Below, in pieces: positions 4,157 through 7,725 of a stretch of DNA of 38,347 bases (position 1 is the stretch's first letter; the number at the start of each line of letters is the position of its first letter). The stretch is from positions 1 to 38,347 of IMG/VR virus record IMGVR_UViG_2718218452_000008; one strand, written 5' to 3'. The translations under genes and the position numbers were made by a program. Under the pieces are notes generated by a model. It had not been told where the DNA came from, made no database searches, and saw nothing but the letters and a program-made list of their open reading frames with translations. This DNA is from a virus. Lineage: Duplodnaviria; Heunggongvirae; Uroviricota; Caudoviricetes.

Positions 4157-5056
4157 ATGATTGATCCACTTATTAGAAACTTACAGAGTGATATTGCACT
4201 ACTCCAGCTTTATATCGCGCAACGCAAACAGGCAGGCTTTCATGACATGGAAAGAATAATTGAGTCATTGACCATCTTTATGTTTCGCGCGCTGAAAATG
4301 GGTGAACTGGTAAACATGAATCAGATTAAAGTTAATTTTCCCGCCATTGATTTAGCTGATAATAAAAACATGATAGCAGTTCAAGTTACTACGAATGCAA
4401 GTCCAGCAAAAATTAAAAAAACTATCGAATCTTTTGAGAAAATAAATGAAATAGGAGAGAGTCTGAAAGATAAATACTCTACTTTATATATTTTTGGTTT
4501 TTGTAAAGCCTCAAGATACCTAACTCCAAGTTATTGTAAAATAATCGACCCCAGCTATTTCGTGAATGAACTTTGCGATAAAGCAGATGAAGATATGGTC
4601 CAGGATATGATTGACGCCATTCGACGCCATCATGATTATACATCATTACATCCATGGAGTGATAAAGATTCACTCGAAATTATACTCAATATTATTAATC
4701 GCAATGCAATAAAACATCGGATGAGTTGCGAAGGCAGTCTGTCTGATATGCTCACTGGTTTAAAAGAAATTAATGAAGTAATTACAAAAGGAACAATTCA
4801 ACGTAAGCAACGTTCAAAATCGATATCTGACTTCAAAGATCAAAGCATGGTGAAATTTATGAGAGGTGTAATGGATGATTTGTCTGTTATTCAAGCCATA
4901 GTGAACAAATCTAAAGTTAACCAAGGTGATATGGTTTATATAAGCCATGAAGATATGATTAATATTGATAAATTAAAAGCTAAAATAGCAAGTGATTCAT
5001 CAGAGATTGCAAGGCTAAATAATATTGATATAACACTAAATGTTGTTGATTTATAA
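4157..5056 (+). CDS. Putative SMEK-domain protein (299 aa), low-GC accessory gene
   Basis: The N-terminal region (NFPAIDLADNKNMIAVQVTTNASPAKIKKTIESFEK...LYIFGFCKA) resembles the SMEK domain as I recall it. The gene is strongly AT-rich relative to flanking phage genes and has an AGGA Shine-Dalgarno. Confidence 0.6.
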   Translation: MIDPLIRNLQSDIALLQLYIAQRKQAGFHDMERIIESLTIFMFRALKMGELVNMNQIKVNFPAIDLADNKNMIAVQVTTNASPAKIKKTIESFEKINEIGESLKDKYSTLYIFGFCKASRYLTPSYCKIIDPSYFVNELCDKADEDMVQDMIDAIRRHHDYTSLHPWSDKDSLEIILNIINRNAIKHRMSCEGSLSDMLTGLKEINEVITKGTIQRKQRSKSISDFKDQSMVKFMRGVMDDLSVIQAIVNKSKVNQGDMVYISHEDMINIDKLKAKIASDSSEIARLNNIDITLNVVDL

Positions 5057-5370
5057 TTGTCGATTTAGCAAAACAGAGAATGCTTTGAAAGTTTCACCGA
5101 GAAATATTTATTGTGAACCTCCTTATTGTTTATCGACTTTTACTCTCCGCTCATTGCAGTACTGTCGGAGAAGGCTACTATGTACAAGAAGCAGCTAACA
5201 TAAGCGAGCATCACTATTGATATTAGGAAGAGTATATAAAAACTTCATGCTGAACCTTACAAAAGTAGGTAAACCGGCAATGGCCTAAGTGGCAGGGTCA
5301 TGTTGATCCGGCACTGCCGAGCTAATAATTAACAAGCAAATCACTCTTTCTAATAATTTGTTGAAATAAA

Positions 5371-6024
5371 CTAAATATGTATATGTTTACCAACAACCAC
5401 ATATGAACTACCTGCTTTGCTCCATGATTTTATTATTTCTAAATTATTATCTGAGCATATTTTACTTACAGTATCCACATCTAATAAACCATAGTAGAAA
5501 GCATTGCGAGAGTTTTGGTATATATACCCATGCAAATGTTTAATACCGCTCTCGTACCTCTTGAAATAAGAACTTTTGTATTGATTGACAATCAGTGCTT
5601 CACCATCACTCTTTAATAATTCTCTAATCGCACTGAGGACTTTGTGAATTGTGGATTCACATGGAATTGCGGAAAGCACGTTTGCGCAAAGTATGAAATC
5701 ATAATGATTTGTTATTTTATCTATATTTTCATAAGAAACAATATTAGCATTCTTATAGTTATTTATCACGTAATCTGGAATCGTGGTTTGTACACCTCTG
5801 ATAATTTGCACTCTTTCTAGTTGTCTTCTGGAATCTAAAAATGTCACAGTTTCAAATTTATTTACTAATTGTTCTGAATATCTAAGTTTTCCACATCCAA
5901 AATCAAGGGCATTGCCATTTTTATTAGTGCTTTCAATCTGTTTACAGAGATAGTTAGATGGCATAGTGTGCGGTTTCGCTGCATTTTCTGAACGTATGTT
6001 TATTCCATTTATTTTGTAATTCAA
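5371..6024 (-). CDS. Class I SAM-dependent methyltransferase (about 217 aa), not DNA-MTase-like
   Basis: Motif I ALDFGCGKLRYS, acidic end of beta-2 (VTFLDSRRQ), post-I ILCANVLSAIP, and LLKSDGEALIV. It lacks DPPY/NPPY and PCQ motifs. Probable TTG start at 6024 (GAGG 6 nt upstream) or 6030; starts 13 bp after the membrane-protein stop. Confidence 0.75.
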   Translation of the reverse strand: MNYKINGINIRSENAAKPHTMPSNYLCKQIESTNKNGNALDFGCGKLRYSEQLVNKFETVTFLDSRRQLERVQIIRGVQTTIPDYVINNYKNANIVSYENIDKITNHYDFILCANVLSAIPCESTIHKVLSAIRELLKSDGEALIVNQYKSSYFKRYESGIKHLHGYIYQNSRNAFYYGLLDVDTVSKICSDNNLEIIKSWSKAGSSYVVVGKHIHI

Positions 6025-6036
6025 AATCAACCTCGT

Positions 6037-6732
6037 TTAAAAAATATTGTTATTGTTAAAGAATTCTTTTATTTTGCTATCAGGTATTTGTCTTACTTGG
6101 CTTTCTGTTCTTGGTTTAACTGATGCTATGAAAATAAGGAAGTCAAATGCGACAAGAGAAATAATCCACAACCAAAGATTAATTAAAGAGCCAGTAACAG
6201 AGAATATATTTGTTAATTTGGCGATACTTATTATTAAAATAGTAACAAATGCGATTACTGTATGTTCAAAGAAAACCCAAAAGTAATAAACTTTGTTCCA
6301 GAAAAGTTCAACGTAATGTTTGTCTTTTAACTCTTTAACTTCTGGGTAATACAGTTTACTCATTACCTTGTGAGATTCATCAGTAGTTAATTTTCTCGTA
6401 ACGCCTGCAATTTTTGCTAATGGTTTAATAATTAAATGACTATCCCACATCTTCCTTATTCCAATAATTTTTGCTACATTATTATGTAGATCTAAAGCTC
6501 CACTAATTACTGACCAAAAAACTGAAGATGCAATTGGTAATATGCCAAAGGTTAATATCCATTTAATAAATTCCTCGTAGTCTTTAACGGGGGGGATATA
6601 CTTGGCATTAATGCCAACCAATGGCATGTAGCCATAAATGACTAATGATAGGTAAAATATAAATGTAGTAATAAAAGTCGCCTTATGGAGCATAGGCAAC
6701 ATTTCATTATAACTCTTTGGTGGTTCTAACAT
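6037..6732 (-). CDS. Predicted 4-TM integral membrane protein (231 aa), first gene of a two-gene operon with the methyltransferase
   Basis: Four long hydrophobic segments (ATFITTFIFYLSLVIYGYMPLVGI; FIKWILTFGILPIASSVFWSVISGAL; YYFWVFFEHTVIAFVTILIISIA; LINLWLWIISLVAFDFLIFIASV). ATG at 6732 has GGAG 7 nt upstream. Very AT-rich. Confidence 0.7.
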   Translation of the reverse strand: MLEPPKSYNEMLPMLHKATFITTFIFYLSLVIYGYMPLVGINAKYIPPVKDYEEFIKWILTFGILPIASSVFWSVISGALDLHNNVAKIIGIRKMWDSHLIIKPLAKIAGVTRKLTTDESHKVMSKLYYPEVKELKDKHYVELFWNKVYYFWVFFEHTVIAFVTILIISIAKLTNIFSVTGSLINLWLWIISLVAFDFLIFIASVKPRTESQVRQIPDSKIKEFFNNNNIF

Positions 6733-7173
6733 TTTACTCTCCAAACACTCAAAAAAAAGCTAATCTTCTATAATAACGAAATTCAGCTGGCACAATTAAA
6801 GATTAATTGCCACCAATTTCTTGATTTTATAATTTTATCTAAATGTTTTTGATTAATCTAGTCCTAAAAGAAACCTACTGCATAAATATTTATGCTGATG
6901 ACCCACTCCCTGTTCGTTAACACATAGCAACGTTAGTAATGCATCCTAAGTGATCAATATTTTTGCTAGCTTCATCTGCTCGCTCAAAGGGAACTATAAT
7001 GTTGGCTTGCGTGTGACTTGGCATGTTTAAAGAAGTGCTGGTGGTGACTGGTTGCTGTTTTCCATTTCCACAGAACAAAATCATAGAAACTATACCCAGT
7101 AGTTGTATTGAATCACTGACGAGACAGCCTCATATTTATCAGGACTGGTGTACGTCCAATACAGGAGGTTGTG

Positions 7174-7263
7174 GTGCTGGTTCTCAAATGTGCGCTGGCT
7201 ATTGCTGCTGTAATGGCAATTTATTGTCTTGCTGTTGTTCTTATGGATCACCTTTCTGATTGA
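7174..7263 (+). CDS. Candidate small hydrophobic peptide (29 aa)
   Basis: AGGAGG at 7163-7168 followed by a GTG start, encoding (M)VLVLKCALAIAAVMAIYCLAVVLMDHLSD, a single predicted TM helix. Not in the ORF track (under 60 aa). Confidence 0.3.
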   Translation: MLVLKCALAIAAVMAIYCLAVVLMDHLSD

Positions 7264-7474
7264 TTTCATATTGGCGAGGTAACGGTAGTTAAGTAGAATT
7301 GCTGCGGGTGCTTGAGGCTATCTGCCTCGGGCATCAACACCAAAGGCAGATAGAGAAAAGCCCCAGTTAACATTACGCGTCCGGCAAGACGCTTAACATT
7401 AATCTGAGGCCATATCTATGCTCTACACACGTAGGTTAGCCTCTTACGTGCCGAAAGGCAAGGAGAAGCAGGCT

Positions 7475-7630
7475 ATGAAGCAGCAAAAGGCGATGTTAAT
7501 CGCCCTGATCGTCATCTGTTTAACCGTCATAGTGACGGCACTGGTAACGAGGAAAGACCTCTGCGAGGTACGAATCCGAACCGGCCAGACGGAGGTCGCT
7601 GTCTTCACAGCTTACGAATCTGAGGAGTAA
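7475..7630 (+). CDS. hok: Hok/Gef-family type I toxin (51 aa)
   Basis: MKQQKAMLIALIVICLTVIVTALVTRKDLCEVRIRTGQTEVAVFTAYESEE is the Hok family signature and near-identical to K-12 HokD/RelF as recalled. The track ORF 7418-7630 extends in frame upstream. Confidence 0.85.
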   Translation: MKQQKAMLIALIVICLTVIVTALVTRKDLCEVRIRTGQTEVAVFTAYESEE

Positions 7631-7698
7631 GAGACCCGGCGGGGGAGAAATCCCTCGCCACCTCTGATGTGTCAGGCATTCTCAACGCACCCGCATTT

Positions 7699-7725
7699 AA
7701 CCCGCTTCGGCGGGTTTTTGTTTTT
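7699..7725 (+). terminator. Intrinsic terminator downstream of hok
   Basis: CCCGC-TTCG-GCGGG hairpin at 7701-7714 followed by TTTTTGTTTTT. Confidence 0.6.

Follow-up and report, generated by a model that had tools for sequence, protein, structure and literature searches.

A conserved small gene for a predicted single-pass membrane peptide lies beside hok in lambdoid prophages of Escherichia coli

A strong ribosome-binding site followed by a 29-codon hydrophobic reading frame lies upstream of a hok gene in a stretch of viral DNA of 38,347 nucleotides (hereafter the window), and the question that it raises is whether this frame is a gene and, if so, whether it belongs to hok, encodes a second membrane toxin, or stands on its own. 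A sequence-only reading of the window had pointed out the AGGAGG, the 29-codon frame with one hydrophobic helix, and the hok gene about 210 bp further on, and had suggested a peptide resembling type I toxins or a leader peptide. The sequence is as that reading described it, and the distance from the end of the ORF to the hok CDS is 212 nt. We found that the small ORF is genuine, in that it has a strong ribosome-binding site and a frame that evolves as a protein-coding gene under purifying selection. The features discussed below are collected in Table 1.

Two GTG codons, at 7171 and 7174, stand in frame behind the AGGAGG (surrounding sequence of the window, ACAGGAGGTTGTGGTGCTGGTT). The ORF listing gives a 30-residue frame at 7171–7263 because the GTG at 7171 lies in the same frame. 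Across the 227 copies that we compared, the codon at 7174 is GTG in 221, ATG in 2 and TCG in 4, the last being frameshifted copies, whereas the codon at 7171 is variable and reads GTC, TAT, ATC or similar in many of them. Because only the 7174 codon is conserved, we take it to be the true start. The product of the resulting 29 codons is VLVLKCALAIAAVMAIYCLAVVLMDHLSD, with GAT (7258–7260) as the last sense codon and a TGA stop at 7261–7263. The peptide has a GRAVY of 1.86, residues 6–24 being strongly hydrophobic, and AlphaFold2, run on the single sequence of the peptide, returned a single helix with a pLDDT of 91.6. The hydrophobicity and the helix prediction fit a transmembrane peptide.

Table 1. 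Positions of the small gene and the adjoining hok locus in the window.
Feature	Position	Strand	Comment
Putative −35 hexamer TTGAAT	7108..7113	+	sigma-70-like, the small gene's own
Putative −10 hexamer CATATT	7131..7136	+	17 nt after the −35
Predicted 5′ UTR	7143..7162	+	carries the conserved motif GTRYACGTC
Shine-Dalgarno AGGAGG	7163..7168	+	5 nt before the conserved GTG
Small ORF, 29 codons + TGA	7174..7263	+	product (f)MLVLKCALAIAAVMAIYCLAVVLMDHLSD; one predicted transmembrane helix, ~residues 6–24
Conserved 3′ tail of the module	7264..7278	+	supplies the hok −35 here
hok promoter	7271..7299	+	TTGGCG (7271–7276), 17 nt, TAGAAT (7294–7299); consensus scan
hok/mok/sok locus	7306..7720	+	leader 7306–7480, mok 7418–7630, hok 7475–7630, terminator 7699–7716

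Copies of the region were collected by blastn searches of 5,426 complete E. coli genomes and of phages, and further copies came from pattern scans of IMG/VR, GTDB genomes and metagenomes and from eight annotated loci at 79–100% identity. The 227 copies with enough flank comprise 98 unique sequences and 48 unique ORF sequences, and come from prophages and phages of E. coli, Shigella and E. albertii. The frame, whose lack of conservation in homologous loci the sequence-only reading had listed among the grounds for refutation, is intact in about 220 of these 227 copies. Among the ORF-complete copies it is broken in four decayed ones, which belong to one lineage with a 2-nt deletion (for example L085 and L123), and in one recombinant. 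Two divergent copies that the search pattern did not match also retain the frame: L006 has a 3-nt, in-frame deletion, and in L004 an 11-nt deletion between ATTG repeats has removed the stop and made the frame 6 codons longer.

The substitutions point to selection on the peptide. We counted the minimum number of events, each extra allele per site being one event, and obtained for the ORF frame 24 synonymous and 22 non-synonymous ones, where a synonymous fraction of 0.30 is expected at the observed transition bias (binomial p = 0.0014). Their distribution over the three codon positions is 14/7/25. Pairwise pN/pS is 0.34 in the ORF frame versus 0.52–0.89 in the other five frames, which are unconvincing by the event count as well, the best of them being the wobble-sharing reverse frame (p = 0.04). 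All replacements are conservative (A/V/T, I/V, M/V/I/T, D/E/N, R/H, L/F, S/T, C/Y). The test is itself conservative, because the search pattern fixed several wobble positions, and it is limited to 46 events because the diversity is shallow, being confined to Escherichia and Shigella. On this synonymous excess, which is specific to the ORF frame, we conclude that the amino-acid sequence is under purifying selection. The high nucleotide identity of the ORF could in part stem from recombinational homogenisation with the adjacent hok module.

Other sources of the conservation were considered and set aside. A 78-aa Cys-rich frame at 7023–7259 on the plus strand, annotated as a hypothetical protein on 392 contigs, evolves neutrally (6 synonymous and 38 non-synonymous events; pN/pS 0.89) and lacks conservation in its upstream half; a 59-aa frame at 7090–7269 on the minus strand, annotated in phage HannyBb and in a Klebsiella record, is interrupted by stops in 10 of 31 variants. 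By these comparisons, both overlapping ORFs are artefacts of the hydrophobic-codon stretch. RNA structure does not account for the conservation either: folding of 7143–7300 gave z = −0.66 on the plus strand, which is no significant structure and leaves the Shine-Dalgarno in a 3-bp stem only, and no structure was found on the antisense strand (z = +0.11). A remnant of a larger gene was rejected as well, as all 36 database relatives, found in a protein search with a 42-aa annotated extension as the query, are short Escherichia ORFs without a Pfam domain.

Upstream of the frame, the putative promoter hexamers are held at fixed offsets. The −35 position reads TTGAAT, TTGAAG or TTGATT in 201 of 227 copies and is retained in four sequence families despite divergence of the 17-nt spacer, and the −10 reads CATATT in 219 of 227. 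Among 10 family representatives the −10 is 100% identical (mean pairwise identity 1.00), whereas its flanks are 54–57% identical (spacer 0.54, sequence after the −10 0.57); the corresponding values are 0.35 further upstream, 0.69 for the −35, 0.85 for the Shine-Dalgarno, 0.88 for the ORF and 0.86 for the 3′ tail. Upstream of ~7105 the copies belong to five or more families of unrelated sequence, and the cargo that precedes differs from family to family. The promoter matches the consensus at 8 of 12 positions, below the threshold of the consensus scan. On this pattern of conservation the hexamers are the footprint of a functional, weak sigma-70 promoter, whose activity we infer. Judged from the position of the −10, transcription would start at ~7143 and give a leader of ~30 nt, a length that is conserved among the copies. 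The Shine-Dalgarno position holds GGAGG, GGAGA, GGGAGG or GGGGG in all but a few copies, and its spacing to the start codon stays at 5 nt. In the frameshifted lineage of four copies, the −10 has mutated to CTTGTA and the Shine-Dalgarno to CAGAAAG, so that promoter, ribosome-binding site and frame have decayed together, as expected for one functional unit.

Several further observations concern this region. In 14 copies TCTCAT stands in place of the −35, and these copies (L030, L031, L034, L048, L066) read TCTCATCAATGATGAGA at the equivalent of 7108–7124, a perfect 8+1+8 palindrome that resembles an operator for a dimeric DNA-binding protein; the window has only the degenerate TTGAATCACTGACGAGA. 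In L085 and L123, two IMG/VR contigs with the decayed module, the downstream hok is intact. A terminator-like hairpin within the ORF (7198–7217) was discounted, being broken in L005-type copies. A likeness in 12 of 13 positions between GTGGTGACTGGTT (~7040) and the start region GTGGTGCTGGTT (7171–7182) was judged to be chance and is absent from the other upstream families.

What follows the ORF is a complete hok locus. The Rfam hok/sok leader model RF01794 matches from its first position with 114 bits; the match begins with GGGUGCUUGAGGCU, which we take to resemble the 5′ 'tac' end of the R1 hok mRNA. Pfam HOK_GEF matches the mok/hok frame at 2.9e-23, the hok product begins MKQQKAMLIALIV and is encoded inside the mok frame, and RefSeq annotates hokD at this place. 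The hok −10 ends 7 nt before the start of the Rfam leader match. The 3′ end of the hok mRNA and its terminator (7639–7720) also give a sub-threshold match to Rfam IsrK (25.8 bits against a gathering score of 50, E = 0.014). IsrK is an Hfq-binding sRNA of Salmonella Gifsy-1, and the match may reflect a shared ancestry of the prophage position or a mere terminator-like shape.

The small ORF stops 8 nt short of the hok −35 and 43 nt short of the 5′ end of the hok mRNA (~7306). Since the hok promoter begins only after this point, the ORF is not within the hok mRNA. Hok is found downstream in 199 of 227 copies and is absent from 28; in copies without it (L005, L008), other sequence and then a convergent DUF1971/TehB-like gene follow the module. 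The proposal of a leader peptide therefore fails, since the ORF is upstream of the hok promoter and mRNA start and is also found where there is no hok. Nor is the ORF a mok-like member of the locus, which would sit inside the hok transcript and always accompany hok; hok often occurs without it.

The edges of the two units tell the same. The 3′ tail of the module is kept both with hok and without it (L005, L008), while most other hok loci (Stx phages, Rac, Sp5-type) become homologous to the window only from ~7279–7289 onwards. Because the mosaic junction with the downstream module falls at ~7279, we delimit the module as 7108–7278. In ~750 further E. coli genomes, O157:H7 and ST131 among them, hok is accompanied by 7241–7278 only, at 100% identity, a remnant made of the last ~20 nt of the ORF and the tail, fused to hok. 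Such loci indicate that the ORF has repeatedly been truncated by cargo exchange with hok kept, and this suggests that the small ORF together with hok is the older arrangement. From these comparisons, the small gene and hok are frequent neighbours but separable units. They share the prophage and the strand, are adjacent, and both encode membrane peptides; however, the small peptide has no HOK_GEF match, its ORF is outside the hok transcript, and each unit occurs independently. Members of the Hok/Gef family (PF01848) are about 50 aa long and have a periplasmic, Cys-containing tail.

The truncations bear on the view that the ORF is non-functional as a protein and that its conservation comes from recent spread and hitch-hiking, the region serving cargo exchange next to hok as a homology arm while ribosome-binding site and frame persist by inertia. 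Such an origin would suit the loss of most of the ORF without obvious consequence in those ~750 hok-keeping genomes, the narrow phylogenetic range and shallow divergence, and the lack of a RefSeq annotation in the rows listed. It is decidedly unlikely, however, in the face of a synonymous excess that is specific to the frame, of replacements that are strictly conservative, and of a −10, a Shine-Dalgarno and a start codon that are kept although their surroundings are only 35–57% identical. Moreover, an indel is tolerated in frame, the lone frameshifted lineage is also the one without Shine-Dalgarno and −10, and the ORF is retained in a non-hok context.

The short distance to hok admits another explanation, that this is a cis-acting upstream ORF which tunes hok, or other genes further on, through promoter occlusion or read-through, the peptide sequence being of secondary importance. 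A scan found no intrinsic terminator between the end of the ORF (7263) and the hok terminator, which makes read-through of the small-gene transcript into hok probable; in the non-hok context, we noted by eye a weak 5-bp hairpin with T-rich flanks past the ORF. This missing terminator, the 8-nt gap to a hok −35 that the conserved tail itself provides, and the 199 of 227 copies that precede hok would all agree with a role in cis. We nevertheless regard it as very improbable, because selection acts on the amino-acid sequence itself, the module persists without hok, the ORF lies outside the hok mRNA, and hok loci work without the small ORF: hokW-sokW of Sp5, cloned alone, is a functional toxin–antitoxin system (PMC8621323).

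The likeness to type I toxins holds in size and in the single helix; the features of RNA control were sought and not found. Like the E. coli toxins IbsC, TisB, ShoB, DinQ and ZorO, which have ~20–35 residues that are nearly all one hydrophobic helix and are often unannotated and often on mobile elements (PMC12648545), the peptide is small (<60 aa), hydrophobic and single-helical. It differs from them in having no sequence similarity or family match, the 29/30-aa peptide giving none in searches of Pfam, NCBIfam, PHROG and PADLOC, and in an acidic C-terminal tail and a slightly negative net charge. In the mRNAs of type I toxins the Shine-Dalgarno is typically sequestered and processing is required (PMC12648545), whereas the predicted 5′ UTR of the small gene is neither long nor structured, at ~30 nt, and leaves the Shine-Dalgarno exposed. 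No antisense or divergent sRNA was found. An antisense promoter on the opposite strand, for which the earlier reading had advised a search, did not appear: neither a promoter nor a terminator on the minus strand of 6750–7800 exceeds the threshold of the consensus scan, though a weak or unconventional promoter may have escaped it. Rfam gave, for 7100–7300, only a chance-level minus-strand sok match at 7267–7364 (19.5 bits, E = 0.35, gathering score 59). There are no direct, inverted or complementary repeats near the small ORF, and the longest match anywhere in the 38-kb window is 10 nt, below the shuffled expectation.

The small gene does not have the appearance of a classical type I toxin under RNA control. 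It might still encode the toxin of a second type I module next to hok, one that depolarises the membrane and whose RNA control goes unrecognised. In its 29 residues, its one transmembrane helix and its strong hydrophobicity the peptide agrees with what is generally described for type I toxins (PMC12648545), the gene sits in a prophage beside a bona fide type I system, and a weak minus-strand pair, TTAACT and TATGAA separated by 16 nt (~7292–7265), can be seen by eye past the stop codon. The −35 of this pair is not retained in the L005-type context, however, and the scans gave no minus-strand promoter or terminator, no antisense structure and no repeat that would indicate an sRNA. A short leader with a strong, exposed Shine-Dalgarno speaks against a second toxin as well, and a conserved, constitutive-looking promoter together with an open ribosome-binding site is hard to square with a potent one. 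We therefore consider a second toxin unlikely.

Several E. coli chromosomes match the window at 100% identity. The window represents a Qin-like lambdoid prophage whose genes run in the order dicA/dicC immunity, ydaT, replication gene, DUF977, cargo, small ORF and hokD, followed by a rem-like gene, a hypothetical gene, DUF968 (ydfU), rusA, Q and tRNAs. The small gene lies at the right-hand end of a slot of variable cargo, which is flanked by DUF977 (ren-like) and the hok/rem/DUF968/rusA/Q block. Here the cargo (4157–6744) consists of a SMEK-domain protein on the plus strand, with a PADLOC match to Aga_REase-PNTD at 1.4e-20, and, on the minus strand, a class I methyltransferase with a weak mad2 match and a 235-aa multi-pass membrane protein. 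Elsewhere the slot holds SIR2 proteins, a DUF2326 protein, QueH, or unrelated large ORFs (slots compared: L004 451–1410, L006 1–1395, L005 593–1261, L008 362–1156 and L003 864–2198). Judged by its contents, the slot resembles a hot spot for defence and accessory genes in lambdoid prophages of the Qin/mEp460 type. L008 has at 1411–1434 a perfect 9-bp hairpin, GTCCGCTTT-TCGCTC-AAAGCGGAC, with no T-run, at the left edge of the conserved 6979–7105 block and just left of the equivalent of window position 6979; the left arm is replaced in the window, so this looks like a mosaic boundary.

Phage morons are independent promoter–ORF–terminator units in lambdoid prophages, HK97 gp15 being an example. 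Like them, the small gene is a small extra gene between backbone genes; it has its own putative promoter, with a −35 and a −10 conserved at fixed spacing, and is patchy in related phages, being truncated or absent beside hok in many genomes. It differs from them in that no clear terminator of its own is present in the hok context. We conclude, with a probability of roughly 0.6, that 7108–7278 is a self-contained, independently expressed 'moron'-type accessory gene for a single-pass inner-membrane peptide. It would consist of a weak sigma-70 promoter, an unstructured leader of ~30 nt, a strong Shine-Dalgarno and a GTG-started ORF of 29 codons, and its expression would come from the prophage, with a further contribution from early rightward transcription that reads through. 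The peptide would insert into the inner membrane with its Lys5 end inside and its acidic tail (D-H/R-L-S-D) outside, a topology, Lys5 cytoplasmic and tail periplasmic, that is predicted by the positive-inside rule.

Such a moron-type peptide would have counterparts among the small inner-membrane proteins of enterobacteria. MgtS, AcrZ, MgrB and YohP are encoded by chromosomal core or regulon genes and have known partners. They resemble the small peptide in being single-pass, under 50 aa and served by an ordinary promoter and ribosome-binding site, whereas the small peptide is prophage-borne and matches no curated family. Within the membrane, it would bind a host or phage membrane protein or mildly perturb the membrane. 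Non-toxic small membrane proteins act by binding larger membrane proteins (PMC12648545), and by analogy the most probable mode of action of the peptide would be to bind or modulate a larger membrane protein of the host or the phage, conceivably Hok. A closer tie to Hok, in which the peptide would belong to a new prophage membrane-effector family that works with or against Hok, is quite unlikely. It would then be a constitutively produced transmembrane partner that influences how Hok forms pores, or a type I-like toxin under unprecedented control, with no sequestration of the Shine-Dalgarno and with the antitoxin elsewhere.

The module is covered over at least 80% of its length in 1,891 of 5,426 complete E. 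coli genomes (about 35%), including E. coli B REL606 (NC_012967.1, complement(1619975..1620064)); carriage by BL21(DE3) is inferred from the GenBank accession ACT43394.1 only, the cluster table naming no organism. The small ORF is also present in the free temperate phages Evi, Tritos, mEp460_ev081 and HannyBb. The scan of GTDB genomes yielded only E. albertii, Shigella and a few MAG contigs that are probably misbinned or chance matches, and the pattern scans of genomes and metagenomes returned no homologue outside Escherichia and Shigella.

Annotation of the small ORF is uneven. Some GenBank records give it as a 29-aa 'membrane protein' (for example APK03751.1 and ACT39199.1), and a few label it 'membrane protein' or 'conserved hypothetical protein' but place its start at various wrong positions upstream (34–68 aa); in the rows examined, RefSeq has no annotation at the small ORF. 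In REL606 (L135), the RefSeq tags skip ECB_RS08100 between ECB_RS08105 and ECB_RS08095, at the small ORF and mok, and the original GenBank record of this strain has the 29-aa ORF (ACT39199.1); the skipped tag would fit a gene call withdrawn at a later time. Fragments of the peptide gave no match in a full-text literature search, and the text of a preprint on small proteins of CFT073 lacks the peptide.

About a third of complete E. coli genomes therefore carry a conserved gene that RefSeq, in the rows examined, omits, and hundreds of GenBank records annotate the wrong frame at this place, the spurious 78-aa Cys-rich ORF. Small unannotated membrane peptides in prophages are of a kind already known; this family has no name, and no description of it was found in the literature searched. 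The analysis corrects a tempting misreading, that the small ORF is a hok leader, and adds the small gene, as a candidate, to a class of small membrane proteins that is still growing. An interaction of the peptide with Hok or the neighbouring defence cargo, if there is one, would be relevant to the way in which membrane toxins and immunity are combined by prophages; and should the less likely Hok-linked effector prove true, the small gene and hok would form a two-peptide membrane module guarding the defence-cargo slot of lambdoid prophages.
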